Below are positions 3,614 to 40,564 of a stretch of DNA of 64,000 bases, in pieces. The notes under the pieces are model-generated. The model saw nothing but the letters and a program-made list of their open reading frames with translations. It did not search any database and had not been told where the DNA came from. The DNA comes from Candidatus Staskawiczbacteria bacterium (GTDB lineage Bacteria > Patescibacteriota > Minisyncoccia > Minisyncoccales > Staskawiczbacteraceae), in NCBI GenBank assembly GCA_026395175.1, contig JAPLZF010000015.1:21066-85065 (forward strand). Reading direction: 5' to 3'. The position numbers and the translations under genes are program-made. Position 1 is the first letter of the stretch. Each line of letters starts with the position of its first letter.

Positions 3614-3867
3614 AAAATAAAAACCGCCAGCTTTGACAGCGGCGGCGAAATTAATTTACTAATTTGAATCTTTTCCCAATCTTCTAAAAAGAAGCAGAAC
3701 TCCTCTAAGCAGCCACGTTGGCTGCTAATTCCATGCCAGATTTTTATATCTAATAACATAAACCACAAACGCCACTGGTTACAACGAGTGGCGCCATGGC
3801 GATTCCAGCCGGTTGCCCGACCGGGCGTATGCCGTTAGCTAACGGCAAGAGGAATTTACCCCTCTCA
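3614..3867 (-). ncRNA. Candidate structured leader or ncRNA between a promoter and an integrase-proximal terminator
   Basis: GC-rich with no ORF of 60 aa or more. Minus-strand reading shows serial hairpins: AGAGG/CCTCT, GCCGTT-AGCT-AACGGC, CCGGT/ACCGG, CGCCACT/AGTGGCG, AGCAGCCA/TGGCTGCT. It ends with CCGCC..GGCGG plus TTTTTATTTT right before the integrase ATG. Confidence 0.3.
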
Positions 3868-3873
3868 CCGCCT

Positions 3874-3900
3874 ATTATACCACTTTTGTAACCGTGTCAA
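3874..3900 (-). promoter_or_regulatory. Sigma70-like promoter (TTGACA-N15-TGgTATAAT) reading toward the integrase
   Basis: Minus strand reads GTTGACACGGTTACAAAAGTGGTATAATAGG. The -35 is at 3895-3900 and the -10 at 3874-3879, with an extended TG. Confidence 0.45.
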
Positions 3901-4073
3901 CGAAGTTTTGCGCTTCATGGCACGCCCTTGCGGGAAATGGTGAATTATTGATTAATTTTCTCCTATGCCTCATATTGCCAGACCCTGTTGAGGAAGTCAA
4001 GCCCAGTCGCTCCCTGCAATAAAAAACCCGTTGAAGTTATCTCGGGGTTACGCGAGCGATGTAAATCGCTTTG

Positions 4074-4973: not shown

Positions 4974-5097
4974 CGCTATTCTCCTTTCAAAGTTCACTTT
5001 CCACGATTCCCTCGTGAATTGGGTTACCGAAATTGGTAATACTTATCATTACCATAATTGCCTAATTATGTCAACGCAAGCGAAACCGCCTCAAAAA

Positions 5098-6072
5098 TCA
5101 AGCCACCGTAGCCACTTCTTTAAGATTATTATACAACTTTAATCTGGCAGATAAATCGTTCTCTTGCTTGCCTAAATTTTTACAATAATCCTCAGCCAGT
5201 TTTAAAAATCTGTTCAAACCGTATCTTTTTATTATTATAATTTCGAACAAGGTTAGGGTGTAAGAAACAACGAAAGAAAGATTATGACTAAACCCTTTTA
5301 TTTTATCATCTGGAGCATCGGTGATAAAAATTTCAACATCTTTGTAATTAGATTTTATTCTTAGCCTATATAAAAAATCCAAAATTGTTGTATACCCGGG
5401 ATCGTAATCCTTTTTTAATTTTTTCGCCATACCTAATTCTTTTTGCTTTTTATTTGTTTTTTGCGGCTTAAAATCTTCTATCATATTAATATGTTCAGCC
5501 TTTAAACAAGTAGAAATCATATCAACGGATCTAACTCCGCCACGACTTAAACTATTCACGAGTTTAACGTCGATAGGAAAATTGATAGGAGAAAATTCGT
5601 GCCTCAGCGTACCCTTATAGGCAAAAGACCATGGTTCAATCACGCCAATTTTCTCTACCAAAAAAGTGTTTAATTTCTTTATGCAACCGCTATGAGATTC
5701 TTGTGTTGATTTATCAATTAAAAATCCTAATGCTTCTCCGACTGAATACACAGCATAATAAGATTGTATGGGCTTCCAATGATTATTTATTTTTAATAGC
5801 TCTATATTTTCGTTATCGTTCATACTTGATAAAAATTCTGTATTCCACCCAATATATAAAAATCTTTTTATTATGTTTTCATCAATACTGCCTGATAATT
5901 TATTAATAACTAATTTTTCCCATAAAAAATTTACAAACTGATCCTTGCCGCCATATTTTCCTTCAATGAATCTCCTAAAACACTTAAAATAATTTTGGTA
6001 AACATCAAACTTAATTTCTGGTTCAGTCGACGGCACACCAAATTCTTTATAGTTATAAGTTATCGTATTCAT
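5098..6072 (-). CDS. Hypothetical protein (possible YaaC/Abi-like helical protein; unassigned)
   Basis: 324-aa soluble ORF next to the R-M locus. The only weak cue is the LYRLRIKSNYKD segment. No confident motif. Confidence 0.4.
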   Translation of the reverse strand: MNTITYNYKEFGVPSTEPEIKFDVYQNYFKCFRRFIEGKYGGKDQFVNFLWEKLVINKLSGSIDENIIKRFLYIGWNTEFLSSMNDNENIELLKINNHWKPIQSYYAVYSVGEALGFLIDKSTQESHSGCIKKLNTFLVEKIGVIEPWSFAYKGTLRHEFSPINFPIDVKLVNSLSRGGVRSVDMISTCLKAEHINMIEDFKPQKTNKKQKELGMAKKLKKDYDPGYTTILDFLYRLRIKSNYKDVEIFITDAPDDKIKGFSHNLSFVVSYTLTLFEIIIIKRYGLNRFLKLAEDYCKNLGKQENDLSARLKLYNNLKEVATVA

Positions 6073-6086
6073 TATTCTGTTTTATA

Positions 6087-6917
6087 TCACCAGCAGATAT
6101 TAACGTTTGTTTTAATTTGTTTTTGCAGATACGCTTCGGCGTCATATATGCCGCCAACCTGGTCGATCAGTCCATTGTCTTTTGCCATTTGGCCGGGCAT
6201 TGCGGCTCCATTGGCCAATGCAGTAACTTTGGCTGTATCCAAGTGTCTATTTTCAGAAACGTATTTGATAAAATCGTCGTAGCTGATTTTTAAATTTCTC
6301 ATAAACATCTGCTGAGCTTCTGGAGTCAGGGGTGCGTCCGGGTTGCCGGCATCCTTAAACTGCCCTTCGTTTAATTGGTAAAAAGTTAACCCGTCGTTTG
6401 TGTTTTTATCATAATTCCCGACATAAGACATTGTAACTCCTATGTCGCCAACGTCCGACTCGGCCGCGGCGATAATGTGCTTAGCGCCCGTTGAAGCCAA
6501 ATAAGCCGCTGAATCCCCTTCCTGCCTGATCAAAGCCACTGTGGGCTTGCTTGAATGCTTCAGGGCCTCCATTATCTCCCATCCGGCAACCGGCTGACCC
6601 CCGTTTGAATCCACCTCTAATAGTATCGCCTTTATTGAATTATCCTTATTAGCCTTTTCAATCGCTGCAGTTATTTCTTCCGATGATGAAATGTCCTTGC
6701 TTGATTGCCCAGTACTGTCGCTTGCATAATTTCGGTAAGTGTATAAATTTCCCTGGAGCTTGATCCCTTTAACGTTGCAGCTGCCAATGGCCGGTAAAAT
6801 GTGCAATTGGCTATATAAAAAATATAATTGAATTAAAAAAACTGTGGCCAGCAAGCCGAGCCCAATAAAATAAACCTTCTTGTCTGTTAATATCTTTATT
6901 ATTTTTTCTTTATTCAT
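6087..6917 (-). CDS. sppA: Signal peptide peptidase SppA-type serine protease (S49 family, 36K type)
   Basis: N-terminal TM helix followed by a ClpP/crotonase-like core: ILLEVDSNGGQPVAGWEI...VALIRQEGDSAAYLASTGAKHIIAAAESDVGDIGV. Confidence 0.75.
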   Translation of the reverse strand: MNKEKIIKILTDKKVYFIGLGLLATVFLIQLYFLYSQLHILPAIGSCNVKGIKLQGNLYTYRNYASDSTGQSSKDISSSEEITAAIEKANKDNSIKAILLEVDSNGGQPVAGWEIMEALKHSSKPTVALIRQEGDSAAYLASTGAKHIIAAAESDVGDIGVTMSYVGNYDKNTNDGLTFYQLNEGQFKDAGNPDAPLTPEAQQMFMRNLKISYDDFIKYVSENRHLDTAKVTALANGAAMPGQMAKDNGLIDQVGGIYDAEAYLQKQIKTNVNICW

Positions 6918-6959
6918 TTATTAAATTATTTCTTAATTAATTTTTTAATAAAAAATCAG

Positions 6960-7430
6960 TCATACTTCAGGAATAATATCTTTTGGCAAGACAGATTTTT
7001 GTAATTCCTTAAGCCTATCTAACGGAATCATTTTAGCACCAGTCCGGTCGATTTTTAAATTATTTAATGCCTCCCAAACGCGTTGAATGTCTCCATTATA
7101 AATAGATTTGTATTCGCCACTTTCTCGGTCAATTTGAAATACCATTAATAAGCCATCTGCAAAACCATCTTCTGGCGGTTCCTTTAGGTACGTGCCATCT
7201 CCACTGGTTGCTTTTATCTGCACATTTCTGCCGTTATAAGTGCCGTCCCAATCATGACGACCCACATCATGTAATTCGATCTGATAAAAAACTCCTGCTA
7301 TCACTTCTCCAATGTCGCCAACCATTCGACCATCCGGAGTAAATTTACGCATTCCGCCAGAAAGCTTAGACAGGTCTCTACAAGAATGAAATACATTTTT
7401 TACTGCAGATGTAAATTCTGCCTTTTCCAT
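6960..7430 (-). CDS. Small PD-(D/E)xK-like nuclease-fold candidate downstream of res
   Basis: 156 aa, 18 nt downstream of the res stop. The GDIGEVIAG....VQIKAT spacing resembles a D..(E/Q)xK restriction-endonuclease-like core. Tentative. Confidence 0.4.
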   Translation of the reverse strand: MEKAEFTSAVKNVFHSCRDLSKLSGGMRKFTPDGRMVGDIGEVIAGVFYQIELHDVGRHDWDGTYNGRNVQIKATSGDGTYLKEPPEDGFADGLLMVFQIDRESGEYKSIYNGDIQRVWEALNNLKIDRTGAKMIPLDRLKELQKSVLPKDIIPEV

Positions 7431-7448
7431 AATATTATTTTTTATTCA

Positions 7449-10433
7449 TTAATTAATTTTTCTAAATAAATCACCTAGTTTCAACACGCTTCTATTTTCC
7501 AGCCAACTTATATCTTTTTTATCAAGTTGTGGGTTCTCTTGAATGAACAAATATCGCCATTCTTCTTTATTAGGGTCAGCTTCGGTAAGCATTGAGGCAT
7601 ATTTTTCTCCGCGTTCTTTCTTGGCTTTATCTCTATCATCCATCCTGCCCTTTACCTCAATTATATAATTTACAATCCTTCCACCTTCGTCGGTTTTTGC
7701 AATAAAATCTGGAAAATAATTTACATAAAATCCTTGCCACAAATATTCAAAGTTATAGCCAACGCCCTGCTGGTGATTATATAGCCACCCCGTAATATCT
7801 TCACATCCATCCAAAAGTTGTGCAACTCTTAATTCATCGTTGTTTCCCATACATTGTTTGTCGAATCCAGATTTTTCAGGATTTTCTAAAACATTTTCAA
7901 AAATTGCTTGATACGGCTCGACTCCTCGGCTTTCTTTTATTTCGTACTTATCAGTTGCTGGTTTTTCATGGGAACGCAAACTATTGATAAACTTAATCAA
8001 TTCCTGCTTAACCAAGGCCATCACATCATCATTGAAAACATTCTTTTTTACAATTTTATCTGTTTTCTCATCAACAAAATCAAGACGTAATGACATACCA
8101 ATTGGTAAAGCAAACGCTTTTTTCTCTAAAAATCTTTTTACCACATCTAAAACACGCAACTTATCAGAATATGATAAACGCAACTCGTTCAAAATTGGCT
8201 TAACATAACCAGAAATCAATAATCTATCTAAACCAAAGTAGCTTGATGATTGTTCAAATTCAAACTCAAGCCCTTTTTCAATATCCTTTTCAAACTGCGT
8301 TTTAATTTTTAGTTTATCAGCTGATTCTATCCACTTAAATTTTTTCGATAATTCTGGCAAATCAGATTCTTTAAAATTGTCGTGCCAGGTTTTAATATTT
8401 TCCACGAGGCCCAGAAATTTTACCATTCTAACATTTCTTTTTTTTCTTTCTTCAACGTCAGACAAAGGATTTACAACTGTATAAACCGCCGGTTCTTTTT
8501 CTCCAGCATCCACTTCGTCCATAATGTCATCGATCTCGTCGATGATGGCCTTAAAAGAAGGATGTTCAATGATATATAAATTTTCTGGTTTAGAAGAAAA
8601 CGCACCATCATCATCCATTTCTGGTTGATGCATTTTTCTTAAACCACGTCCCAAAGTTTGTTCTGCCAGTGTTCTTGAGTCACATGGCCGAAGGGGGACA
8701 ATTGTTTTAACGTTTCTCACATCCCAGCCTTCTTTAAGCATCAACACGGCCACAATAACATTGTAAGGGTTTTCAATGGATTCACCTTTTAATTGCGGAT
8801 CCTCAATATAATCCTTATCTATCGAGTGAACCAATTTTCTGATTTTCTCCCAATCCTTATCATTGTTTAATTCTTTTTGGCCGATATGAATTTGGATAAC
8901 AGTTGATTTTCCATTTTTAACAAAAAGCGTTTTCTTTGTCTCTACATCGTAAAATCCTTTTACGGGAAGATTATCATTTTCTAAATCTTTTCCTTCATCA
9001 TCAATTTCCTGATATTTCAAATAATTAAATATCTGTGTGGCTTCCTTTTTGTCATTACACAATATAAAAAGTATTTGCTTGCGCTTATCTCCCTCGTCAT
9101 CAAATAACTTTTGGTTTTCCTGCCATCGCTTTATACCCGTACGCAATAAATTTTCGTACATCTCCCAAGCGCATAATTTCTCTTTATTGATTATGCCTCG
9201 CGTTTCTTCACCCTCGTATACTTTTACTTTTTCTAGTTTTGGCATTTTAATAATGCCGTCCTTCTTCGCCTCTCCAAGAGAATATAAGTCAACTGTATGC
9301 TTAAATAAATCCATCCAACGAAATCTTATTTCTTCTTTATCTTTTTTTGTCCCTTTATGAGATCCTTTCTCTTCAAAAAGGGTAGCCGATAAATCAACCT
9401 GTAACGCAACGCCACATAAATCATCCACGTTTCTGATGGAACGGATCCAGCCAAGCTCTTCTTTTATCTGTTCTTCTTTAACGCCGATCTCTTTTAAATT
9501 TTTAATTTTCTTTTCGTATTCCTTGTGCTTTTCTTCATCGTGAACATGATGGGCTTCATCATTGATAATTAAAACATTTTTTGAATTTTTGAAAGAATCT
9601 ACGAGTGTACGCTTTTGATTTTCTAACTTTTTGGGCATCGCTGATTCAAAAAGCGACAATTCTTTGGCTAACTTTTGTGTTTTTACCTCAGAATCATTAT
9701 TTTCTGATTCGCGATAAAGTTTGTGAATGTTTGTTACTACAAGCGCGCCTTCTTCCGATTTCAGTTCGCTTGGCACGGTTGCTGGTGAATATACTTTTAA
9801 ATTCCAACATCTATCCAGTTCTTTCGGAATAATTGGATCGCTGTGAAAAATGTCCGGTCTGTCATCAGACGGCGCAAAATCTTCTAATAATCTATCTAAT
9901 ACAAAAAGATTCGGCGCAATGAGTAAAAAATGTTTTCCTATGCCTAAATGTTTCTCACCTTCAATTGCCGCGTTCAAATAACTCCAAGCAAAAATTAAAC
10001 TCATAATTTTTGTTTTACCCGAACCAGTTGCCAGTTGTGCGCCGAGTTTCGTCCACGAATCGCGTTGCGGAGTAATCATATCTATCCCAATTATTTTAGA
10101 AATGTCCTCGCGCCTGCGAATACCGCATACCTCATAAAGATAAATAAATGTCTCTATCGTCCGTCTTTGATGTGGCCAATATTTAAAACGAAAACTTTTT
10201 CCGTCTTTTCCTTTTAATTCATGCGGAAAAGACCGAAACCAATGGCGTAAAAGCAATTCCGTTGTTTCCGATATTTCTTTTTCAAATGACAATACCGGCT
10301 TATATTTTGCTGGTTCTTTAGGATATGGCACTTTAGCGCTTTGTAACGGAAATCCGCGCCACGCATCTACGCGTTCGCGGATTTTTTGGATAACTATTTT
10401 CTGCGGAGGTAATTTTTTGTCCTGCTCACTCAT
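7449..10433 (-). CDS. res: Type III restriction enzyme, Res subunit (SF2 helicase plus C-terminal endonuclease)
   Basis: 994 aa. Walker A is LATGSGKT and the DEAH box is IINDEAHHV. Helicase motif VI is QTLGRGLR. The C-terminal PD..EVK nuclease motif is FPDFIAK...YIIEVKG. It starts 1 nt after mod. Confidence 0.85.
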   Translation of the reverse strand: MSEQDKKLPPQKIVIQKIRERVDAWRGFPLQSAKVPYPKEPAKYKPVLSFEKEISETTELLLRHWFRSFPHELKGKDGKSFRFKYWPHQRRTIETFIYLYEVCGIRRREDISKIIGIDMITPQRDSWTKLGAQLATGSGKTKIMSLIFAWSYLNAAIEGEKHLGIGKHFLLIAPNLFVLDRLLEDFAPSDDRPDIFHSDPIIPKELDRCWNLKVYSPATVPSELKSEEGALVVTNIHKLYRESENNDSEVKTQKLAKELSLFESAMPKKLENQKRTLVDSFKNSKNVLIINDEAHHVHDEEKHKEYEKKIKNLKEIGVKEEQIKEELGWIRSIRNVDDLCGVALQVDLSATLFEEKGSHKGTKKDKEEIRFRWMDLFKHTVDLYSLGEAKKDGIIKMPKLEKVKVYEGEETRGIINKEKLCAWEMYENLLRTGIKRWQENQKLFDDEGDKRKQILFILCNDKKEATQIFNYLKYQEIDDEGKDLENDNLPVKGFYDVETKKTLFVKNGKSTVIQIHIGQKELNNDKDWEKIRKLVHSIDKDYIEDPQLKGESIENPYNVIVAVLMLKEGWDVRNVKTIVPLRPCDSRTLAEQTLGRGLRKMHQPEMDDDGAFSSKPENLYIIEHPSFKAIIDEIDDIMDEVDAGEKEPAVYTVVNPLSDVEERKKRNVRMVKFLGLVENIKTWHDNFKESDLPELSKKFKWIESADKLKIKTQFEKDIEKGLEFEFEQSSSYFGLDRLLISGYVKPILNELRLSYSDKLRVLDVVKRFLEKKAFALPIGMSLRLDFVDEKTDKIVKKNVFNDDVMALVKQELIKFINSLRSHEKPATDKYEIKESRGVEPYQAIFENVLENPEKSGFDKQCMGNNDELRVAQLLDGCEDITGWLYNHQQGVGYNFEYLWQGFYVNYFPDFIAKTDEGGRIVNYIIEVKGRMDDRDKAKKERGEKYASMLTEADPNKEEWRYLFIQENPQLDKKDISWLENRSVLKLGDLFRKIN

Positions 10434-10434
10434 A

Positions 10435-12534
10435 TTATTTTTTAATAACTACTTTTGTTGTTACAATCCCATCGTTTCCAAAAACATCCGTTACTTTGAC
10501 GGCTATTGTATATTCACCAGCTTTTTCGTATGTATGAAATGCTTTAAATACCAAATCTTCAACCATCTTCTTGCCATTTCTTTTTCTAAACGATTGCCAT
10601 TCGTTTTCAAACACAAATTCTTTTAAATTATCTTTTAAACTTTCGTAATCCCAATCCACCGCCCAAAAATCCACAAAACTTTGCCAACTTTTTTCTTTCT
10701 CTAACCATTTTTTAAGTTCATTTCGACGTTCCGGATTCTGACTTTCTAAAAAACTTTCCGCATCAACTTCCAATCCGGCAAGCTCTATCATCGCTTCTTT
10801 GCTGTCATTAACTTTGTGGATTTTTACTGTAAGCGGTGAGAAAAATGCGATATTAGGCATTTCGCTTATCTTTTCTGGATTTTTAACTCCGCTCTTGATA
10901 AATTCTAATCTCTTTTTTACTTCATCAATGGCGCTGGCCGGTATGATCCGCGCCGTAACCTGTACGCCATATTTTTCTTTGGCTTTCTCTATCGCATTGT
11001 TCAGGTGCGCGGTAAAATCCGCCGAAAGCACATAACACTTTTTAAAATCTGTGTCTTTTACTTCTTTAGCAATTGCGTCTATCTGTTCACCGACAATCGG
11101 CGCCGACAAAGGTCCGACATGAATCCAGCTTCCGCGTTTTTTTCCGTGTAGAAGTTTAGAGTATGGTGCATATTCTCCGCCAAAAAGTTCAATAATTGCT
11201 TGCCGATATGAGTCGGCTTGCGCGCCAACTTGCACTGCATCCCATTTTACTCCACGCTGATAATAACCCATGTTCTCTACCGTAAACGGCCTGACTTTAT
11301 AAACGCCGGTGTTCTTTTCCGGTTTTGACTGACCGTTAAGCTCAATTAATCTTTTTCGCGCTGTATGAATAGCAAATTTTGAATTATCAATACCAATCCA
11401 TGTACATTTTAATTCTTCTGCCAATTGCTCTGCGACCACACATGTAGTTCCTGAGCCAATAAATGCATCTAAAATAATACCATTCTGGGGGCATGACACT
11501 TTGATTATTCTTCTTAATAATTCGAGAGGTTTTTGAGTGGGATAACCGGAGAATTCATCATAAGCAAAACTTTCTCGAATGATAGGGATATCATCCCAAA
11601 TATCTTTAATTAAACTACCCTTATTGAAATCTACTGCCACATCATCGCCCTTTGGATCTTTCCCATTTTCTTTAGTAAATCTCTGAGTAGCTTTTCGTAA
11701 TTCTGAAAGTTCATTATTTTCTTTAAGAGTTTTAAATAAAATTTGATTATTTTCGTTTATATATTTTCCAAATCTACCACGCACAGATTCTGTTATACCT
11801 TCTTTTCTTGCCTGAATATATGGATCATTAGTTTTTGAATAGAACAAAATATCTGCATGATATTTAACATAACTTCCTTTAGCCCCAGTTAGACCTTTTC
11901 CACCATACGTCCAGATTATGTTATTAACAAAATTTGAGTAGTCAAATATTTCATCCATAAGAACTTTAATATAATGCGAGGTGTGCCAATCTAAATGCAC
12001 ATAAATTGAGCCCGTAGGTGATAGAAGTTCTTTCATTAATTCCAACCGTTCGCGCATCATTTGAAGAAATGAATCCAGTCCGTTTTGCCAAGTGTCTTTG
12101 TAGGCAATAGTTTCAATAATCGTTGGCTCTTTTACTGACATCACGCCCTCTTCCTCATCTACTTCAATATCAATAGTGTTTTGTGTCACAAAATCATCTT
12201 GCACCATAAACGGCGGATCAATGTATATGAGGTCAATTTTGTTACGATACTTATACTCACCACTCACCGGATCTTTTTCATCTAGTAAAGTTTTCAGCGC
12301 CACAAGATTATCATTAGTCCAAATCAGCCGATTTTTTGGAAAGTCAGCCGACTTGGTAATTTTTTTCTGTAACTCACCTTTGGCAAAAAGTGTATCCTCG
12401 TCTTTTTTCTCTGCCTTTGACGGATACACGATTTCAATTACTTGCGTCGGTACCGCCTCCACTAACGTTTTCTTATCCATCCCGTCATAGGCCAGTATCG
12501 GCTTCTTCTTTTTTAATTCAATTTCTTTTTTCAT
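10435..12534 (-). CDS. mod: Type III R-M Mod subunit (beta-class N6/N4 DNA methyltransferase) with a C-terminal PKD-like domain
   Basis: 699 aa. Motif IV (IYIDPPF) precedes motif I (DAFIGSGTT), which is the beta-class order. The C-terminal ~90 aa read WDWDY...FHTYEKAGEYTIAVKVTDVFGNDGIVTTKVVI, a PKD-type signature. Confidence 0.85.
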   Translation of the reverse strand: MKKEIELKKKKPILAYDGMDKKTLVEAVPTQVIEIVYPSKAEKKDEDTLFAKGELQKKITKSADFPKNRLIWTNDNLVALKTLLDEKDPVSGEYKYRNKIDLIYIDPPFMVQDDFVTQNTIDIEVDEEEGVMSVKEPTIIETIAYKDTWQNGLDSFLQMMRERLELMKELLSPTGSIYVHLDWHTSHYIKVLMDEIFDYSNFVNNIIWTYGGKGLTGAKGSYVKYHADILFYSKTNDPYIQARKEGITESVRGRFGKYINENNQILFKTLKENNELSELRKATQRFTKENGKDPKGDDVAVDFNKGSLIKDIWDDIPIIRESFAYDEFSGYPTQKPLELLRRIIKVSCPQNGIILDAFIGSGTTCVVAEQLAEELKCTWIGIDNSKFAIHTARKRLIELNGQSKPEKNTGVYKVRPFTVENMGYYQRGVKWDAVQVGAQADSYRQAIIELFGGEYAPYSKLLHGKKRGSWIHVGPLSAPIVGEQIDAIAKEVKDTDFKKCYVLSADFTAHLNNAIEKAKEKYGVQVTARIIPASAIDEVKKRLEFIKSGVKNPEKISEMPNIAFFSPLTVKIHKVNDSKEAMIELAGLEVDAESFLESQNPERRNELKKWLEKEKSWQSFVDFWAVDWDYESLKDNLKEFVFENEWQSFRKRNGKKMVEDLVFKAFHTYEKAGEYTIAVKVTDVFGNDGIVTTKVVIKK

Positions 12535-12632
12535 ATTTTTAATTTATTTAACCACAAATCAGACATTTTTTCAAATTTCTAAAACAAAAATGCCGGTACA
12601 TTTAAGCCGGTTGTTTTTGTTAAAAATTATCG

Positions 12633-13016
12633 TTAAGCTAAAATTTTCTCACCGCTTTCTTCCCGAACTTTTATGTCGTCCTTATTCAAAAAATTAACAT
12701 GCACGACCGGAGCGACTAATTCCGGATCTTCTGCTTGTCTTGGTGGGCCGTCTATGTAATTCCAAATCTGTTTTATCATTTGTTCGTTGCCATCGACTAC
12801 GGCCTGTTTTAAAATTCTATTAATCAAGAGCTCTAAATATGACTTCTGCTGGCCCTCCGGAATCTCCTGCAGTTTCTTTTTTATTTCCGCTGTAATCGAA
12901 ACTGACCCGGATGGCCTGCCGTTTGGGTTGCCCGACTGGCCTTTCTTAAAAAGCCACGGTTTTATCTGTTTTTCATCTGTTATATCAGTTGTTTTTATCG
13001 AATTTGACTGCTCCAT
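12633..13016 (-). CDS. Phage-associated small protein (DUF5681-like, GQSGNPNGRP motif)
   Basis: 127 aa. FKKGQSGNPNGRPSGS is the hallmark stretch I associate with DUF5681 proteins found near phage terminase or replication modules. Confidence 0.5.
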   Translation of the reverse strand: MEQSNSIKTTDITDEKQIKPWLFKKGQSGNPNGRPSGSVSITAEIKKKLQEIPEGQQKSYLELLINRILKQAVVDGNEQMIKQIWNYIDGPPRQAEDPELVAPVVHVNFLNKDDIKVREESGEKILA

Positions 13017-13083
13017 AGATTTACCCCACTCGACACCAGATCTCTTGTCTAGGGCCCTTGTGGTTGCTCAAAATCCCCGTATT

Positions 13084-14502
13084 TTATGCTTTTTTGGCCT
13101 TTATGCCCGTAAACCTCTCAAACCTCGCTAATATCACCTCCGCATATAATGGCGACAATTCAATCGCTCGACACTTTCTTTTCATTATTTCGCTGGCTAT
13201 TATTGTTGATCCCGATCCGCCGAAGGGTTCCATAACTATTCCATTTCTTGGAGAAAGTATTTTAACGTATGGCACGAGCACCGGAATTGGCTTTGTGCCG
13301 AAAATCAAATTCTGTCCGGACTGAGAAGCTGAATCTGTTGCGTGCGTTACGTGGTCGCCCATCACCCAAAATTTTGTACCCTTGTCTTTATTCCAATCCG
13401 GTTTTCCCTGTTTTGCATAAAGCGATACCTCGTAAGTGTCGATTAACTTCTGTGCTTTGTTTTCCAAATATTCTCTGAATCCATCTTCGTCAATTTCGTT
13501 ATTTACTCCATCACCGGCAACCGGAGCAACATCAAATCTGTTGAAGAATTTGTATTTTGCCGAGAAGCCCTGTGTTCGGTTTGGCGTGTGCCAGATTACC
13601 ATGTTTTGGATTGCCCAATACTTTCCTATGGCTCCCCAAAGGTCGGGAGTGTTTCTCCAGTTCTCGAATACCATGACATTTGAGCCTTTTTCATTTTTGA
13701 ATTGGTTTGCTATTGAAAGCCATTCGTCAAATTCAGGAACGCCGCCGGCTTGCACAACACCTTCGTATTTTCTGTTGCCCTTGTAGCCGAATCCCTTTCC
13801 TTCCCTGTCTGTTTCGCCAACGCTTTCGTATTCCCTTTCAGCTTTTATTTTCCAACCGTCTTTTGTTTTCACTTTTCTGACTCTTTTTTTACAGTAGGCC
13901 AGCCGATACGGCGGATCTGTGAACATAAAATCAAATCTTTCGTTGCCCAGTAATTTTTTCCACGCTTTCGTATCCGTTGCATTGCCCACGACCAGCTTAT
14001 GCTCGCCTAACTGCCACAAATCTCCAGGCTTTACTCCATGAAGTTTTTGTATCGCTTTTTCTGTTTCTTTTGCCAAGTCAAAATCATCTGCTTTTTCCAG
14101 TCCGAAAATATTGTCCAACTCATTTTCATTGAAGCCAAACTCTTTTAACAAATCTTCGTCGAAGTTGGCCAGCTCGTCAAAATTCCATTCGCCCGTGTTT
14201 TTATTGCTTCTCAGATTGTATTCCTTAAATTCCGCCTCGGTTAATTTTCTGTTTGGCACGCGAACATCAATCTCCTCCTGACCACGGCCGAGCAACTGCA
14301 TAATCTTTAATCGCTGATGGCCGGCAATAATTTTGTTGTCTGTGTCGATTGCCGGAATCTCGACTAAATCAAATTTTGAAACGCTCTTTTTCAAATCCTC
14401 CAGTTGCTTGTCGTTCATGATCCTAGGATTGCCTTCAAAAGGCACAAGATCCTTCACTTTTCTTTTCTCTGTATGCCAAGCTAATTTTTTTGTTGTTTTC
14501 AT
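13084..14502 (-). CDS. ParB-like nuclease domain fused to an N6/N4 DNA methyltransferase (phage-type orphan MTase)
   Basis: 472 aa. The N-terminus has a ParB/Srx fold motif (NPRIMNDKQLEDLKKSV...IAGHQRL). It is followed by FTDPPY (motif IV) and a C-terminal EPFGGSGST (motif I). Confidence 0.8.
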   Translation of the reverse strand: MKTTKKLAWHTEKRKVKDLVPFEGNPRIMNDKQLEDLKKSVSKFDLVEIPAIDTDNKIIAGHQRLKIMQLLGRGQEEIDVRVPNRKLTEAEFKEYNLRSNKNTGEWNFDELANFDEDLLKEFGFNENELDNIFGLEKADDFDLAKETEKAIQKLHGVKPGDLWQLGEHKLVVGNATDTKAWKKLLGNERFDFMFTDPPYRLAYCKKRVRKVKTKDGWKIKAEREYESVGETDREGKGFGYKGNRKYEGVVQAGGVPEFDEWLSIANQFKNEKGSNVMVFENWRNTPDLWGAIGKYWAIQNMVIWHTPNRTQGFSAKYKFFNRFDVAPVAGDGVNNEIDEDGFREYLENKAQKLIDTYEVSLYAKQGKPDWNKDKGTKFWVMGDHVTHATDSASQSGQNLIFGTKPIPVLVPYVKILSPRNGIVMEPFGGSGSTIIASEIMKRKCRAIELSPLYAEVILARFERFTGIKAKKA

Positions 14503-14504
14503 AT

Positions 14505-14648
14505 TTAATCTTTTTTAGCCAATAGCCTCGTTAATGTTAAAACTATGGCGCCGGCAAAAGCAACAGCCCAGATGTAATCGACCACCCAGCCGAGGCAGTA
14601 AAAGAAAGCAAAAAAAGCATTTGTTAAAATTTCATTTGTTGTAATCAT
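14505..14648 (-). CDS. Small hydrophobic protein (47 aa)
   Basis: Own translation: MITTNEILTNAFFAFFYCLGWVVDYIWAVAFAGAIVLTLTRLLAKKD. The start overlaps the upstream stop as ATGA, and the gene ends 3 nt before the ParB-MTase ATG. Confidence 0.3.
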   Translation of the reverse strand: MITTNEILTNAFFAFFYCLGWVVDYIWAVAFAGAIVLTLTRLLAKKD

Positions 14649-14803
14649 AAGTCAGAGGGCTTTGAGGGATAATCTTTCCGGCGAAACCAGAAGATGATTG
14701 CGTCCTCAATACCTGTAAAAAGTAAGAATAGAGCATGAAAAAGAAAGGGGTAAAAAAATACCATCCCTAAAAACTCACTGACACTGGAATTTAAAAAAGT
14801 CAT
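14645..14803 (-). CDS. Small hydrophobic protein (52 aa)
   Basis: Own translation: MTFLNSSVSEFLGMVFFYPFLFHALFLLFTGIEDAIIFWFRRKDYPSKPSDL. ATGA overlaps at both ends. Confidence 0.3.
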   Translation of the reverse strand: MTFLNSSVSEFLGMVFFYPFLFHALFLLFTGIEDAIIFWFRRKDYPSKPSDL

Positions 14804-15069
14804 ATCTTTTGGTCGCTGTCTTGCTTATTGAAATTCCAAAGGAATTTTACAACAAGCCCGACAAAGAAAATTAGTAAAAAGGTTAAAATCAAAACTTGCC
14901 CGTAATCTAACTGCTTTGAAATCCAGAATGTTCCTGCTCCTGTTATTTGCTCTGTTGCCCCACCGGTTCCTATCGATCCGTCACAGGTCATCTGCGTAAA
15001 AGCAAACGGGTCGTTTTTGCCCGGCGGATTTCCTAAATAATTTACTGGCTGTGAAAGTGTGCAATTCAT
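14800..15069 (-). CDS. Small membrane-anchored protein (89 aa, C-terminal TM)
   Basis: ORF track. The TM segment is VLILTFLLIFFVGLVVKFLW. It is part of the ATGA-coupled chain. Confidence 0.35.
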   Translation of the reverse strand: MNCTLSQPVNYLGNPPGKNDPFAFTQMTCDGSIGTGGATEQITGAGTFWISKQLDYGQVLILTFLLIFFVGLVVKFLWNFNKQDSDQKI

Positions 15070-15152
15070 TGTATTATTGAAATGAAAAAAATGAATAATA
15101 TTATCGCGGCTGATAGTCCGTCAATGAAACCAACAAAAAATTCGTAAGTCAT
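15066..15152 (-). CDS. Mini-ORF (28 aa, hydrophobic)
   Basis: Own translation: MTYEFFVGFIDGLSAAIILFIFFISIIQ. ATGA-coupled on both sides. Very short, so speculative. Confidence 0.2.
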   Translation of the reverse strand: MTYEFFVGFIDGLSAAIILFIFFISIIQ

Positions 15153-15316
15153 TTGAATTTTTGAGAGTGTCCTCGTTTTTTTAATGTTAAGTCTATGATC
15201 ACGTATTTTCCTTTGCGGTAATCAACAAAGTACTTCCTTTCATCCGACTGCCCCATTTTGAACCTACGCTTGCCATTTTTCAATCGTCTGTCAAAGAATG
15301 TGCGAAAGCTTTTCAT
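15149..15316 (-). CDS. Small basic protein (55 aa)
   Basis: Own translation: MKSFRTFFDRRLKNGKRRFKMGQSDERKYFVDYRKGKYVIIDLTLKKRGHSQKFK. ATGA-coupled to the next ORF. Confidence 0.3.
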   Translation of the reverse strand: MKSFRTFFDRRLKNGKRRFKMGQSDERKYFVDYRKGKYVIIDLTLKKRGHSQKFK

Positions 15317-15330
15317 AAGTCAAGGCGAAA

Positions 15331-15594
15331 TCACAATTTTTTCGTAATTTGATATTTTGGTCGACCTTTTTTCTGCAAAAATTTGTCTAGTGTTTCATTG
15401 GCTCGCGTTGCTGCGATCCTCAGTTTTTCCTCTTCAGTAACCAATCCCATGGCCAGGGCTTTGTCCAAACCCTCTAATTCTTTTTTCTTAAATAAATTAA
15501 ATAATTTCATGGCGTCATCTTTGTTTGTTATTGGTATGTGTATCATGTTCTTTTTTCTGTTTTTTCGCGCGACCTTTAAACTTTTCCCAGGCAT
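15331..15594 (-). CDS. Small lysine-rich helical protein (87 aa)
   Basis: ORF track. A competing 58-aa ORF (MSNRNQPRVYWDENRQCYYITFFEDTKCDEIVDAWEKF..., 15515-15691) overlaps it in another frame, so only one of the two may be real. Confidence 0.3.
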   Translation of the reverse strand: MPGKSLKVARKNRKKNMIHIPITNKDDAMKLFNLFKKKELEGLDKALAMGLVTEEEKLRIAATRANETLDKFLQKKGRPKYQITKKL

Positions 15595-16046
15595 CTACTA
15601 TCTCATCACATTTCGTGTCCTCAAAAAATGTGATGTAGTAGCACTGCCTATTCTCGTCCCAATAAACTCTTGGTTGATTTCTGTTTGACATATTTTTTAT
15701 TTTTTTAATTTTTTTGCCGGATTTTTCTACTATTCTTGTTTTTTTGAAAAACCCCGAATAATATAAATCCCTTTGTCCTGCTTAAACAGGTCTTCCGCGA
15801 GCGTTGAGTTTTTGAAAACTCGCCCGCAGAAGTCCCTAAATCCCTTTGCTCGCGACCCATTCAGCGCGCGAGAACTGGCTAATTTTGGCTTGATTTAACT
15901 TGAAAACTATACTATGATAGTCCGAAAGCCGTCCCGAATGACCACAAGAGGCGGCTTTTCTTTTACATTGCAAAAATCAATTTAACTTCCAACAATGTCT
16001 GTCTGCCGTGTAATTTCTATCTTCACTCACGGCTCGCAGAATTCTC

Positions 16047-16136
16047 TTTCGGCTAGTTGTCGGCGGGCTTGAATGCCCGTTTTTTGCGTCCTCGTGGGAC
16101 AATATCGGGCAAAGCCGCGCCGACAACTAGCCGAAA
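16047..16136. repeat. Perfect 19-bp inverted repeat with a 52-nt spacer
   Basis: TTTCGGCTAGTTGTCGGCG (16047-16065) pairs with CGCCGACAACTAGCCGAAA (16118-16136). The right arm covers the stop codon of the 388-aa gene. The spacer contains the inner hairpin GGGCTTGAATGCCC. Confidence 0.8.
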
Positions 16137-17293
16137 AACGGAATGAACTTGAATATCGTTCTAATTATGAAAATCCCTAACATCACGATTATTAGGAACT
16201 CAAAAAACTGGATTAAGGGAAATCCTCCAAAAAAGATGTTGATTTTATCTAGGTATGCCTGCGTTGTCGGGAAGATAAGGCCGATCTGGTTGCCCTTTGC
16301 GTAAGATGTATCGGCATTGAAATATCTGAGTGTTTGATTCGCGAATTCGTAGGCGTTGGTAAATATGGGTTCAAAAAATCCTTCTATTGAGTCGGCGAAA
16401 TCAGAAGGGGCGGAATATCCGCCTGCGGAGTTTTGCGTGTACCAAGTGTTCCAATTGGTAAAATTATAAGGTTCGGAATTACCGGAAATATTGGCAATTA
16501 AGGCGTATGTCGGGCTGGGCGTTAAATCTACATAAGTGTTAGCGTCTTGCTCTTGCTCGGCTGCTAAATCCCAAGTTCCGTTTTCCGTAATGCCAAACGA
16601 GGAAAAAGGTATAGAAAAGTTGCCGCTTGAACCCGATAAAGTTATTGAATAAACATTTGAATTAAATCCATTGTTTGGATTTCTTAATTTAATGTGTAAA
16701 TATCCATATCCATAAAACCCTTGTGTAAGCGCGGCATAACTGCCGACAATGTTTGTGTTGTTGCTTGTAATAGTAGTGCCACTTGCAGGCGTAGATATAG
16801 TGAGTGTCGGCGATGTAGGCGGCAAAGAGCAGTCGCCCATATGTGCCGTTGTGCCGTCCCAGTAAAAAATGCAGTAAGACGGCGTCCAATTATTGTATTG
16901 CGGACAACCAGGAGCATTTGCGAGAACATAATTACCCGTAGGTTGCCCTGCTAATTCTGTGTGCATTGCTACGTGTTGTCCGCACCTGCCTTGAAAGTTT
17001 TCGTAATAACCATTTAACCCGCTGACATAATCCAAAGACGGCTGATTATGCGAGGGATAATATCCTTGAAAAAAAGCATATAAAGCAGTGTATGTGCAGT
17101 CCGAACCACCACTGGCAGGAACGAAAACATCACCTGAAAAATATGCCGCGAAAGAGCCAGAAACCGACGCCCCATACATTTGAGGATAATAAAGATAATA
17201 TGTTGTGGCGGCGTGGGAAACGCCGGCTACCGAAAAAGAAACACAACAAAGGGTGAATATAGCGATCAGTTTTAGTGTTTTAGTGACTGTCAT
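16127..17293 (-). CDS. Secreted Cys-containing protein with a C-terminal membrane anchor (g3p-like architecture)
   Basis: 388 aa. Signal peptide is MTVTKTLKLIAIFTLCCVSFSVAGVSHA. The N-terminal half contains Cys, with S/T/N/G-rich segments. The C-terminal hydrophobic anchor is FLIIVMLGIFIIRTIFKFIPFFG. Confidence 0.5.
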   Translation of the reverse strand: MTVTKTLKLIAIFTLCCVSFSVAGVSHAATTYYLYYPQMYGASVSGSFAAYFSGDVFVPASGGSDCTYTALYAFFQGYYPSHNQPSLDYVSGLNGYYENFQGRCGQHVAMHTELAGQPTGNYVLANAPGCPQYNNWTPSYCIFYWDGTTAHMGDCSLPPTSPTLTISTPASGTTITSNNTNIVGSYAALTQGFYGYGYLHIKLRNPNNGFNSNVYSITLSGSSGNFSIPFSSFGITENGTWDLAAEQEQDANTYVDLTPSPTYALIANISGNSEPYNFTNWNTWYTQNSAGGYSAPSDFADSIEGFFEPIFTNAYEFANQTLRYFNADTSYAKGNQIGLIFPTTQAYLDKINIFFGGFPLIQFFEFLIIVMLGIFIIRTIFKFIPFFG

Positions 17294-17295
17294 AG

Positions 17296-17598
17296 TTAAA
17301 AATCAACGAGGCGGCGGAATATAAAAATTAAAATCATTATTGCTAGTCCGGCACCGCATGCGTACTCAATAACCGAGAAATATGGAATTGCGTTAAACAC
17401 TGCCATTATGTTGTTGGGAAAAACCCAGCTCACAGCAGTTGCCGGCGGAGTGCTTGCTATACCGTCAAAAAAGCCCTTTGCGAAATTAAAGAGCCCTGTC
17501 AGCGGCGCGAACAAGTATCCAAACAAAGATCCGATATTTGAAAAAATATATCGGGCTACATTGAAGCAGTCAAAGGCAATATGCAATATATCGTCCAT
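17296..17598 (-). CDS. Polytopic small membrane protein (100 aa; g6p-like size and hydrophobicity)
   Basis: ORF track. It has 2-3 hydrophobic segments and stops 3 nt before the 388-aa gene start. Confidence 0.45.
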   Translation of the reverse strand: MDDILHIAFDCFNVARYIFSNIGSLFGYLFAPLTGLFNFAKGFFDGIASTPPATAVSWVFPNNIMAVFNAIPYFSVIEYACGAGLAIMILIFIFRRLVDF

Positions 17599-17604
17599 GG
17601 GTTT

Positions 17605-17760
17605 TTAATGTCCTCTTATCGCAGAAACTATGGCGTAGAAAACAATCAGCCCAATGCCTATGCCGATGATTATCGTGAGTAGCGGAGTTAAATCAGTAAT
17701 CAAACCCGTGATGTTCGACATCATGGTGTTTGTCATATCGGAAGTCCAAGTTAAAAACAT
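17605..17760 (-). CDS. Coat-protein-like small hydrophobic protein, paralog 3 (51 aa)
   Basis: Own translation: MFLTWTSDMTNTMMSNITGLITDLTPLLTIIIGIGIGLIVFYAIVSAIRGH. It shares the pattern N(I/V)(T/S)G.I.DL.P.LTI..G..IG with the 17777-17950 ORF. Below the ORF-track length cutoff. Confidence 0.45.
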   Translation of the reverse strand: MFLTWTSDMTNTMMSNITGLITDLTPLLTIIIGIGIGLIVFYAIVSAIRGH

Positions 17761-17776
17761 AGAAGTATAATTTTAA

Positions 17777-17950
17777 TCATTGTGGCCGGTCATGTCGCCA
17801 ACTGATAACTGCGGAAATCACTGCCTCTAGAATAAAAAATCCGATTACGACGCCAAGCAATATCGTCAAAAAAGGCCATAGATCATTAATGATCCCGCTG
17901 ATGTTTGCCGTGACATTGCTGAAAGCCGTTGTTGGTAGCGAAACAATCAT
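17777..17950 (-). CDS. Coat-protein-like small hydrophobic protein, paralog 2 (57 aa)
   Basis: Start moved to MIVSLPTTAFSNVTANISGIINDLWPFLTILLGVVIGFFILEAVISAVISWRHDRPQ. The upstream 15 codons in the ORF track only translate a GC hairpin. Confidence 0.45.
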   Translation of the reverse strand: MIVSLPTTAFSNVTANISGIINDLWPFLTILLGVVIGFFILEAVISAVISWRHDRPQ

Positions 17951-17964
17951 AGTTTGTTGCCGGC

Positions 17965-17992
17965 GCCGGGCCCGCCTCTCAACGGGCCCGGC
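17965..17992 (-). terminator. Strong GC hairpin just after the first coat-like gene
   Basis: GCCGGGCCCG-cctctcaa-CGGGCCCGGC, a perfect 10-bp stem, lies between the stop at 18005 and the next start at 17950. No U-run follows, so it may act as an attenuator or processing site instead. Confidence 0.4.
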
Positions 17993-18004
17993 CACCGTTC
18001 GCTT

Positions 18005-18238
18005 TTAGTGTTTAGGAATCAAAGCGATAACCTTGCGGATAATATAGAAGCCCATTGGGATACCGATTGCCAAGGCAACCAACACCCAGACATCTGTCAT
18101 TATCTGGCTGGCGTTTCCAGTCAAATCCGCAACTGCGGTTGAGGGCAGAGTGATTAACTCACCGGCCGCAAAGGTTGAAAGGGCTAACCCAAACAAACCT
18201 GTTGCGACTGCACCTGCACCGACCGCAAACTTTTTCAT
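18005..18238 (-). CDS. Major-coat-protein-like small protein, paralog 1 (signal peptide plus ~53-aa mature part)
   Basis: From the internal Met: MKKFAVGAGAVATGLFGLALSTFA / AGELITLPSTAVADLTGNASQIMTDVWVLVALAIGIPMGFYIIRKVIALIPKH. This gives a signal peptide, an amphipathic N-terminus, one TM and a basic C-terminus, like the inovirus g8p layout. Confidence 0.5.
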   Translation of the reverse strand: MKKFAVGAGAVATGLFGLALSTFAAGELITLPSTAVADLTGNASQIMTDVWVLVALAIGIPMGFYIIRKVIALIPKH

Positions 18239-18320
18239 TGTGGAAAACATTAAACTACGAGGACAATGATTTTTAATTTTTCGACCTTTATACAACAAAA
18301 ATTTGTTGTTACTTTGTGGT

Positions 18321-18354
18321 AAAACAAAAGTCCGATGTCTTGCGACATCGGACT
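18321..18354 (-). terminator. Rho-independent terminator of gap
   Basis: Perfect 11-bp stem AGTCCGATGTC-ttgc-GACATCGGACT, followed on the minus strand by TTTTGTTTT, 24 nt after the gap stop. Confidence 0.75.
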
Positions 18355-18377: not shown

Positions 18378-19379
18378 CTAGAGTTTCTTACCCACGAACT
18401 CTGCAAATTCAGCCAATCGACAACTGTACCCCCATTCATTGTCGTACCAGCCAACAACTTTCACCAGGTTGTCTTTTACCATTGTTTCCTCAACGTCAAC
18501 AATAGACGAATAAGTGTCTCCCTTAAAATCCATTGAAACCAACGGCTCTTCTTCAACCCGCAAAATTCCTTTGAAATTTTTTGATGAGGCTGCTTTTCTA
18601 AATGCTTCGTTTACTTCATCTTTTGTTGTTGGTTTTTTTACTTCAACAATTAAATCTAACAAAGAAACAACTGGGGTTGGAACACGCACTGCAATTCCAT
18701 CAAGCTTTCCGTTTAATTCCGGAATCATTTTGCCAATTGCTTTTGCCGCCCCGGTTGAAGTTGGAATTATGTTTAACGCGGCAGCCCTGGCACGCCTTAA
18801 ATCTTTATGTGGCAGGTCAAGAATTTTTTGGTCGTTTGTATAGCTGTGAACTGTTGTCATAAATCCTTTTTCAATGGAAAATGCATCGTTTAAAACCTTG
18901 GCAATTGGAGCCAGGCAATTTGTGGTGCAGGAACCCATGTCCATTATATCATTTTTTGCAGGGTCAAATGTGTCTGCGTTAACTCCCAAAACAAACCCAG
19001 GCAAATCTTTGCAGGGAGCCGAAACAATAACTTTTTTTGCTCCGGCTTTAATGTGTTTTCTGGCTCCGGAGTCGTCTGTAAATAATCCTGTGCACTCTAA
19101 AACAATATCAACTCCCATTTTTGCCCATGGCAATTTTTCAGGGTCTTTTTCTGCCAAAACCAAAAATTTATTTTTTCCAACTGAAATAGAATTCTCGTCT
19201 GCAAAAATTTCTTTTCCGTAATTTCCGTAGTTTGAGTCGTATTTTAAAAGATGAGCCAGAGTTTTATTGTCTGTCAAATCATTTATTGCCACAACTTCCA
19301 AATTATATTTTCCAAAATCAATAATTTTGAAAACTTGCCGGCCAATTCGGCCAAAACCATTTATTGCAACTTTTGTCAT
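18378..19379 (-). CDS. gap: Glyceraldehyde-3-phosphate dehydrogenase, type I
   Basis: 333 aa. Contains INGFGRIGR (NAD binding) and the active-site SCTTNCLAP, with a [10 protein letters not shown]-terminus. Confidence 0.95.
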
Positions 19380-40510: not shown

Positions 40511-40517
40511 ATGTTTG

Positions 40518-40546: not shown

Positions 40547-40564
40547 ATATTTTAAAAAACCTCT

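Follow-up and report, generated by a model that had tools for sequence, protein, structure and literature searches.

The described systems closest to the locus reported here are the filamentous phages of the Inoviridae/Tubulavirales (Ff, If1, IKe and Pf3), which have small circular genomes with genes on one strand and a large hairpin-rich intergenic region, and which also occur in integrated form. Their coat proteins are small, with an acidic N-terminus, a single transmembrane (TM) helix and a basic C-terminus, and are made with a signal peptide or without one; small hydrophobic open reading frames (ORFs) precede the coat gene, and the set includes a polytopic protein of about 100 residues and a secreted, anchored protein with a variable head. 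The gene order in Ff is gVII-gIX-gVIII-gIII/gVI. We analysed a 64,000-nt stretch of DNA (hereafter the window, whose positions serve as coordinates) from Candidatus Staskawiczbacteria bacterium (GCA_026395175.1, contig JAPLZF010000015.1, positions 21,066–85,065), in which a gene block at 12633–18298, read on the minus strand, shares these traits together with its relatives, the Ff order being paralleled by small hydrophobic ORFs, coat and tip-type proteins. The block is the intact core of an integrative element of ~15.8 kb (~2538–18301) that comprises, in order, coat-like genes, a 100-residue membrane protein (p100), a 388-residue membrane protein (p388), a structured non-coding region, seven small ORFs, a ParB-methyltransferase, a DUF5681 protein, variable cargo and a tyrosine integrase. 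Unlike inoviruses, the element has no pI/Zot ATPase, no replication initiator (Rep), no recognisable single-stranded DNA-binding protein and no homology to g3p or g6p, and it has a sense/antisense promoter pair, Patescibacteria as hosts and, when integrated, a ParB-methyltransferase and restriction-modification (R-M) cargo. On an evenly balanced judgement, we read it as belonging to a family of inovirus- or plasmid-like mini-elements of Patescibacteria that depend on host or helper functions. Protein homologs, genome scans and a conserved 19-mer led to more than 40 independent loci with this gene order; comparison loci carry labels of the style L001–L078, and features of the window lie on the minus strand unless marked (+).

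Three small proteins carry the comparison with inovirus coats. The 77-residue type A protein c77 (18005–18238) has a g8p-like layout with a Sec signal peptide, one TM helix and the tail RKVIALIPKH; its ORF as called mechanically may begin at a TTG at 18298. A G+C hairpin read from the sequence (17965–17992; perfect 10-bp stem GCCGGGCCCG/CGGGCCCGGC, 8-nt loop) separates it from c57 (17777–17950), an extra leaderless paralog of 57 residues that was recognised by alignment and is found among the compared loci only here and in L009/L012. This is followed by c51 (17605–17760), a leaderless type B protein of 51 residues with the layout of the Pf3 coat (…ITDLTPLLTIIIGIGIGLIV…AIRGH). The three align as one family, in which type A members follow the pattern …AVADLTG.A…TD.W.L.ALAIGIP.GFY.IRKVI.L…, with a signal peptide present or absent, and type B members the pattern …ITDL.PLL.IIIG.G.GLIV…AIRGH. 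A preliminary description of the block, made from its sequence without database searches, had placed the g8p-like protein, the hairpin and the two signal-less paralogs correctly on the minus strand and likened the proteins to inovirus coats, a likeness that profile comparisons extend beyond overall shape. When a profile of 22 coat-like members was run against 177,635 PDB sequences, the top two matches were inovirus coats (1IFK, E 0.0055; fd/M13 g8p, 1NH4, E 0.11), both aligned in register across ~40 residues, and a control profile built from reversed sequences reached a best E of 0.13 with transporter segments and matched no coat protein. The top PHROG family was 1646 ‘major coat protein’, matched by seven of the 22 members (best E 1.7e-4; c77 itself E 0.017–0.023), and holin families gave weak matches for four of the 22. 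Furthermore, a tblastn search of 50,697 phage records with c77 gave just five weak matches, one of them If1 gene VIII. The similarity of the small proteins to inovirus g8p appears modest but specific, and a g8p-type major coat protein of the Inoviridae/Tubulavirales kind is present on the strength of this weak similarity. In L066 (60–602 of a 3.8-kb contig) a 180-residue protein comprises a signal peptide, a Cys-containing globular domain of ~120 residues and a coat-like C-terminus, which looks like a natural ‘display’ on a coat protein.

The coat genes are followed by p100 (17296–17598), the polytopic protein already recognised in the preliminary description, which is kept in all family members and sits at a g6p-like position; a profile comparison with the PDB and a PHROG search gave no match to g6p. 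The adjoining p388 (16127–17293) was delineated from its homologs and an AlphaFold2 (AF2) model and has a signal peptide, a variable N-terminal domain, an immunoglobulin (Ig)-like domain at residues ~160–270, a helical hairpin at 298–354 and a C-terminal TM anchor helix at 360–383. The AF2 model, based on a 102-sequence alignment, has a mean confidence (pLDDT) of 75.6, exceeding 90 in the Ig domain and lying at 80–92 in the helical C-terminus. Most of the 51 homologs that fall below about 80% identity share just the C-terminal ~60% of the protein, and the head is swapped among otherwise similar elements while the C-terminal domain and anchor are conserved, as expected for a receptor-binding protein. 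The p388 family comprises at least 357 clusters at 50% identity. The g3p architecture proposed earlier for this protein thus stands as far as the signal peptide, the C-terminal anchor and the variable head are concerned, but finds no g3p match in sequence or fold: structure prediction, which had been suggested as a check, gave a confident Ig-like domain and helical C-terminus, and Foldseek with two p388 models returned generic Ig/fibronectin type III matches and none to f1 pIII. A p388 profile gave nothing relevant in the PDB, and tblastn gave no match in the phage records. L072, a circle-derived contig (6036 bp, beyond one unit), carries two p100-p388 sets with different p388 N-domains (proteins of 365 and 456 residues); it could be a heterodimeric concatemer or else the product of an assembly that ran across two strain variants.

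Seven small ORFs (14505–15691), in an order conserved in more than 30 loci, lie beyond the non-coding region. They encode three soluble basic proteins (s58, 15515–15691; s71, 15331–15546; s55, 15149–15316) and four small membrane proteins (s28, 15066–15152; s89, 14800–15069; s52, 14645–14803; s47, 14505–14648), the last five ORFs being joined by four ATGA overlaps. Their number, sizes (28–89 residues) and overlaps had been reported correctly, but the ParB-methyltransferase begins 2 nt, not 3 nt, past the last stop codon. Pairwise comparison with eight relatives gave ratios of nonsynonymous to synonymous substitution rates (dN/dS) of about 0.03–0.25 at dS of 0.5 to >2, also for the ORFs of 28, 47, 51 and 52 residues (small ORFs to 0.35; c77 0.10–0.17; c51 0.05–0.20; p100 0.05–0.22), the exception being s55 (55 residues) with 0.26–0.49 at dS of 0.14–0.58. 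All genes of the block are real, intact and under strong purifying selection. The word ‘remnant’ used in the preliminary description does not fit genes in this state or a family of this size.

The same set of genes occurs on its own in small circles. L047 is a 4,280-bp contig with an exact terminal overlap of 127 bp that contains small ORFs, coat-like genes, p100, a p388 homolog, the structured non-coding region and nothing else; L063 and L069 have terminal overlaps of 127 and 141 bp, and further p388 homologs reside on contigs of 3.8–4.4 kb. The circles with terminal overlaps measure 3849, 4109 and 4153 bp; circles of the family range over 3.8–4.3 kb, with all genes on one strand. Assemblies from other samples or assemblers (L064, L070, L071) are circular permutations at 99.6–100% identity, and L073/L074, whose gene orders are mutually rotated, are probably circular permutations as well. 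The small, circular, one-strand genome of the Inoviridae/Tubulavirales is thus found in the circles, the window copy being integrated. No gene of the circles matched Pfam, and the circles hold no Walker A motif in a real ORF, no conserved antisense ORF and no integrase; apart from p388 and one coat-fusion protein, their proteins do not exceed 142 residues. The core set consists of two or three coat-like single-TM proteins, p100, the type-I membrane protein p388, four small membrane proteins and two or three small basic proteins, and together with the non-coding region it forms a self-contained, autonomous circular unit of ~4 kb. At 90% identity the coats form at least 230 clusters, in dozens of which the longest contig measures 3.7–4.9 kb. 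Since the coat genes come directly after s47 in the circles, the window element is such a circle, cut open at the border of s47 and the coat genes to take in a module of methyltransferase, DUF5681, cargo and integrase.

At its left end the integrated element starts just downstream of the intrinsic terminator (18329–18354; terminator scan) of the host GAPDH gene (18378–19379). In an alignment of upstream regions the sequence is host-specific through the GAPDH or rplK terminator and then passes into a common left end (GTAACAACAAGTTTTTGTTGTAAAAGGTCG…), which a junction alignment showed to be conserved in nine loci after one gene or the other. This end holds the palindrome AACAACAAATTTTTGTTGT (18292–18310), present solely in integrated members of the family, and the conserved leader AAAGGTCG. 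An imperfect 33-nt direct repeat flanks the element, formed by an attL-like copy within the left end (18270–18301) and an attR-like copy (2538–2571) directly upstream of a host aminotransferase gene (Smith–Waterman score 35 against a shuffle maximum of 25, 0/1000); the right copy is identical at 25 of 27 nt to the sequence just past the L012 integrase. A repeat finder gave no exact att repeats, the imperfect one having emerged through gapped local alignment. Direct repeat and integrase-end boundary together therefore place the element at about 2538–18301. A remnant of the GAPDH 3′ end was sought at the right end, as seen in L012 and L008, and is not present in the window.

Members of the family are found after GAPDH (window, L007, L009/L012, L024, L031, L043, L048, L049), after rplK (L001/L002, L005, L014, L077) and in tandem, following a tailed prophage in L008 and another family member in L003. 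The metagenome-assembled genomes (MAGs) of their hosts bear the labels Staskawiczbacteria and ‘Saccharibacteria’. Homologs of the ParB-methyltransferase that are more distant and lack the block occur in Nealsonbacteria and other Patescibacteria. The locus thus has the end integrase, the att repeats and the variable sites of a tyrosine-recombinase element, and not the form of chromosomal genes shared by all relatives without borders, the finding that would have spoken against the preliminary description. That description was right that the DNA is mobile and that relatives would define its borders, with a sharp left end and att-like repeats at both ends, but it drew the element too small and missed both the integrase and the repeats. 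In L008 (1–8638, the same region as L010 and L078) the tailed prophage lies in the GAPDH 3′ end, with a 21-codon GAPDH remnant directly before the element; it carries a diversity-generating retroelement (reverse transcriptase, bAvd and an Lcl_C-type target), a lysis cassette and an integrase 49% identical to that of the element. In L005 (890–4519), where the element follows rplK, the host GyrB gene is broken by an intein (Pfam Intein_splicing).

The non-coding region (15692–16126) is 435 nt without ORFs and has a conserved structure with strong covariation. On the gene strand, a long hairpin lies directly after p388 (~16050–16131; alignment) and is followed by a 5′ domain of five helices (15885–16046; alignment and covariation) that includes the invariant 19-mer GAGTGAAGATAGAAATTAC (16010–16028), and by a 3′ domain that carries a GGUCUUYC…GRAAGACC hairpin. 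In an 11-sequence alignment of the 5′ domain, 17 of the 32 predicted pairs in its five helices show compensatory change, and 94.8% of the cells are paired, compared to 80% in shuffles (0/500) and 35–46% with the partners slid, while loops are invariant, e.g. a 17-nt loop within GAGTGAAGATAGAAATTAC. The gene strand is favoured over its reverse (alifold −90.2 vs −77.3 kcal/mol, in addition to GU/GC alternations). A covariance model detected the 5′ domain in circles outside its training set (L072–L075, L066/L067), and across the family the non-coding region measures 430–850 nt and is demonstrably structured in some clades. Rfam held no family for the region at E ≤ 1 apart from two chance-level matches. 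The hairpin-bearing non-coding stretch of the preliminary description (430 nt) is thus present, but its conserved structure and an antisense promoter had been overlooked.

This sigma-70-like promoter (TTGATT-17-TATGAT, 15890–15918 (+); promoter scan) has as its −35 box (TTGAYN) the reverse complement of an invariant TCAAGCC motif, and its −10-like hexamer falls 16–18 nt past the −35 box within an otherwise variable hairpin. Among 15 distinct variants, the −10 hexamer matches at four or more of six positions in 87% (22% in shuffles) and at five or more in 53% (3.6% in shuffles). A terminator-like hairpin with a T-run on the antisense strand (16062–16089 (+); terminator scan) could possibly end a countertranscript of ~200 nt; it is limited to this variant type and absent from variants with a short hairpin. 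Good sigma-70 sense promoters lie 40–90 nt upstream of the first helix in L035 and L047. By analogy, the sense/antisense layout resembles plasmid copy-control regions, and a single-strand origin or a packaging site could have such a layout as well. The invariant hairpin loop (16010–16028) ends in AAATTAC, which is one base from the TA(A/G)TATTAC nonanucleotide nicked by the Reps of geminiviruses and circular Rep-encoding single-stranded (CRESS) DNA viruses; this likeness could be a coincidence or a putative nick site for a Rep supplied in trans.

Searches for the enzymes that would complete a filamentous phage were negative. No pI/Zot, Rep or P-loop protein was detected by Pfam or PHROG in the core, in the cargo or among 20 large ORFs (mostly ≥250 residues) elsewhere in the window, the Walker-A scan covering the core. 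The absence of a Zot/pI ATPase and a HUH Rep noted beforehand therefore holds in these scans, and the family-level searches proposed at that stage matched the coat family (PHROG 1646) but neither pI/Zot nor Rep. Across core and cargo, Pfam, PHROG and PADLOC gave weak coat and holin matches as the sole yield for the membrane block, and the 5.7-kb block had no match among PLSDB plasmids. Inovirus membership fails on pI and Rep; the element may nonetheless function as inoviruses do.

Two types of Rep-less or motor-less mobile DNA share part of this layout. Satellites of filamentous phages and integrative mobile elements exploiting Xer (IMEX), such as RS1 and TLC of Vibrio cholerae, are small, inovirus-related, helper-dependent and site-specifically integrated, and have no morphogenesis genes. 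RS1/TLC-type satellites lack structural genes and keep replication and regulation genes; the present element is the reverse, with structural-type genes only. ColE1-type plasmids are Rep-less small circles with a long structured RNA region after a sigma-70 promoter and a convergent antisense promoter positioned to transcribe three stem-loops, but the element has no sequence or Rfam similarity to RNA I/RNA II, and its sense transcript would continue into protein genes.

The insert that distinguishes integrated members from circles begins with a gene for a ParB-like nuclease domain joined to an N6/N4 DNA methyltransferase (13084–14502; PF01555, PHROG 498 at 2.9e-65, PADLOC), which looks like an orphan, with no cognate nuclease adjoining it. 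It is 90–95% identical in amino-acid sequence between elements, with dN/dS of 0.03. Recent transfer had been considered on account of 93–95% identity and was withdrawn, as dS of 1.2–2.0 implies that the identity mirrors constraint. The next gene encodes a DUF5681 protein (12633–13016; PF18932 at 3e-11), in agreement with the earlier assignment, at the position of a small terminase subunit (TerS). Distant homologs of the ParB-methyltransferase (47–58% identity) stand directly upstream of TerS, the large terminase subunit (TerL) and portal in Patescibacteria prophages, the gene after the methyltransferase in L018/L019 being TerS; further homologs adjoin replication genes or a serine recombinase. 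The pair therefore looks like the recruited head of a tailed-phage packaging operon, and is a separate add-on module, a distinction that the preliminary description had missed. ParB-methyltransferases of phage-packaging and plasmid-leading regions are likewise orphans, placed for early protection of incoming DNA beside a gene in TerS position, but here the enzyme belongs to a mini-element with coat genes, and exchangeable R-M cargo takes the place of terminase and head genes behind it. In L017 (1424–5313) the ParB-methyltransferase and a short DUF5681 gene are followed by a large serine recombinase. The Nealsonbacteria prophage L018 (4401–7584) carries a second ParB-like protein and a 588-residue P-loop protein upstream of the ParB-methyltransferase, the latter with weak PHROG matches to terminase, FtsK and Zot-like families. 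L011 and L013, two contigs of MAG CAYOIH01, each have a ParB-methyltransferase module, and this MAG may hold two elements.

Variable cargo (4006–12534; Pfam, PHROG, PADLOC) follows, consisting of a Type III R-M system (mod, 10435–12534; res, 7449–10433), a DUF6998 protein (6960–7430), a membrane S49 peptidase (6087–6917), a 324-residue protein of no family (5098–6072) and a PEP-CTERM repeat protein (4074–4997). Relatives carry other cargo, namely an AlwI-type R-M system, an EcoRI-methylase with GmrSD, Vsr with Dcm and an SMC-like ATPase, or an MvaI R-M system with AAA_15. The S49 peptidase and the 324-residue protein were considered as head protease and capsid, an idea that was dropped: the peptidase has an N-terminal TM helix like SppA, and the 324-residue protein gave no capsid match. 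PADLOC had no match for the DUF6998 protein, the SppA-like peptidase or the 324-residue protein (5098–7430). The PEP-CTERM repeat protein gene contains five repeats of ~126–135 nt with a G+C content of 0.50 compared to ~0.38 nearby; one would not expect a PEP-CTERM sorting signal in the genome of a member of the Patescibacteria. The element ends in a conserved module (2696–4005) of ~390 bp and the tyrosine integrase (2696–3613; PF00589 at 8e-30). Window positions 2697–4005 are 88.7% identical at the DNA level to L012 13059–14368, the likeness ending at the integrase stop codon, and the integrases of L011, L015 and L024 are 92–95% identical.

How the element might work can be put together from these parts. 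The coat-like proteins would be homologs or close analogs of inovirus g8p and, together with p100 and p388 as a receptor-binding tip, may build an extracellular filament or filament-like particle that takes the element from cell to cell. As there is no gene for a Rep or a pI/Zot motor, the element would need the host or a helper for its replication and export. The structured region, with a sense and an antisense promoter, may act in cis in replication and copy control (ColE1- or ssi-like) and could in addition serve packaging; the methyltransferase would protect incoming DNA, and the R-M cargo would stabilise the integrated form. A more specific proposal, which we put forward tentatively and with considerable doubt, is that the 3.8–4.3-kb circles and their integrated derivatives form a new enzyme-free, ‘structural-genes-only’ class of replicon with an antisense-RNA-controlled, host-replicated origin and an inovirus-type transmissible filament or particle. 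Several observations weigh against an inovirus-like mini-element. In absolute terms the likeness of the coats is weak, and composition may mislead in short TM proteins. Neither in sequence nor in fold do p100 and p388 resemble g6p or g3p, proteins of a type that diverges past recognition between inovirus groups. The pI/Zot ATPase and the replication initiator, which define every known inovirus, are absent from core, circles and window, and sense/antisense RNA control is typical of plasmids, not of phages. The covariance model misses the 5′ domain in three circle clades (L063, L065, L069), and a search of IMG/VR with p388, p100 and the 19-mer gave one provirus contig, called viral through its neighbouring tailed prophage. 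An inovirus satellite and an appendage, the other readings raised in the preliminary description, are possible.

Several of these points would fit a non-viral small plasmid or integrative element whose membrane proteins and adhesin form a surface appendage or attachment complex that aids the episymbiotic host, e.g. in holding on to its partner, and which would spread by natural transformation or with other elements. The plasmid-like promoter pair in the non-coding region, the missing virion-assembly motor and Rep, the adhesin-like p388 with its Ig-like domain and variable tip, the globular domain fused to a coat-like anchor in L066 and the near absence of the family from IMG/VR all agree with it. 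We consider it fairly unlikely, however, since a 4-kb replicon given over entirely to an envelope or filament module, without maintenance genes, would be expected rather of a selfish element that forms particles, the similarity to inovirus coats is specific, and there is neither an appendage ATPase nor a prepilin-type signal, the signal of c77 being of the ordinary Sec kind and the other coats having none. A pleomorphic membrane-vesicle virus or plasmid-vesicle akin to the Pleolipoviridae/Plasmaviridae, in which p388 would act as the spike or in fusion and the small TM proteins would be internal membrane proteins enclosing a naked genome circle, is improbable. Such systems also combine type-I spike-like and small membrane proteins, small circles and integrase-bearing proviruses, and p388 (type I, with a variable head on a conserved stalk of helical hairpin and TM helix) has many small membrane proteins beside it; integrated copies have integrases as in pleolipovirus-like proviruses, and CPR (candidate phyla radiation) hosts have no outer membrane. 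No protein families are shared, however, and the genome is half the size of the smallest pleolipovirus; PHROG gave no match to pleolipovirus or plasmavirus proteins, spike/VP3-type proteins included, an NTPase of the kind conserved in pleolipoviruses is absent, and the best matches of the small proteins are inovirus coats, with an acidic-TM-basic layout well fitted to a helical sheath around DNA.

That the integrated form lives as a satellite on a tailed phage of Patescibacteria, with ParB-methyltransferase and DUF5681 redirecting a helper terminase and the membrane block as an accessory for exclusion or lysis control, we hold to be more improbable still. It draws on the ParB-methyltransferases of L018 and L019 directly upstream of TerS, TerL and portal, on the weak holin matches of four of the 22 coat-like proteins and on the tandem arrangement in L008 next to a tailed prophage with a related integrase. 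Of the features of phage-inducible chromosomal island (PICI)/P4-like satellites, the element has an integrase and, by analogy with L018/L019, DUF5681 in TerS position, and no replication module. Against it, the membrane block exists by itself as circles, without ParB-methyltransferase or DUF5681, and is therefore the core and not an accessory; capsid-remodelling and replication genes typical of satellites are lacking, and the TerS role of DUF5681 is putative. Finally, the lack of replication and assembly enzymes and the setting of the block among housekeeping genes could be taken to indicate a decaying prophage remnant or ordinary conserved chromosomal genes. We give this practically no credence, as it is refuted by intact genes under purifying selection, varied sites with sharp ends, free circles and a large, diverse family.

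Elsewhere in the window, a 2203-residue Rhs/Tc-type polymorphic toxin is encoded at 33956–40567, with SpvB, TcdB_midN, FG-GAP and RHS repeats and a C-terminal ribonuclease domain; small ORFs downstream of it could be immunity genes, and a second RHS protein, with a CHAP domain, is encoded upstream (41163–42509). The sole large plus-strand gene of the window (47639–49180 (+)) encodes a single protein in which an adenine methyltransferase of the D12 (Dam) type is combined with a LexA DNA-binding domain and an S24 peptidase.

Very little is known about the mobile elements and viruses of CPR bacteria, and few studies have dealt with plasmids there (PMC12023590). The literature on inoviruses and small plasmids of Patescibacteria yielded no description of anything comparable, and the core membrane proteins, which have no Pfam family and are essentially missing from IMG/VR and PLSDB, form a widespread family of hundreds of protein clusters over many metagenomes. 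We know of no virus or plasmid group for which free ~4-kb circles with filamentous-phage-type coats and no replication or assembly enzyme have been described. Marker-gene detection of inoviruses depends on the pI ATPase, and this family defies it. CPR bacteria mostly lack CRISPR. Were the circles to make particles, no smaller or more host-dependent agents of a filamentous-phage-like kind would be known, and they would be a route of gene flow that includes R-M systems; should they be replicons with structural genes only, they would stand between plasmids and filamentous phages and belong to neither, their integrated forms shuttling R-M systems. If they make no particles, they would represent a new type of plasmid, with genes for a filament or adhesin on the cell surface that matters to episymbiosis. 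In the conserved structured region and its antisense promoter, the family also offers a new candidate for a regulatory or origin RNA.

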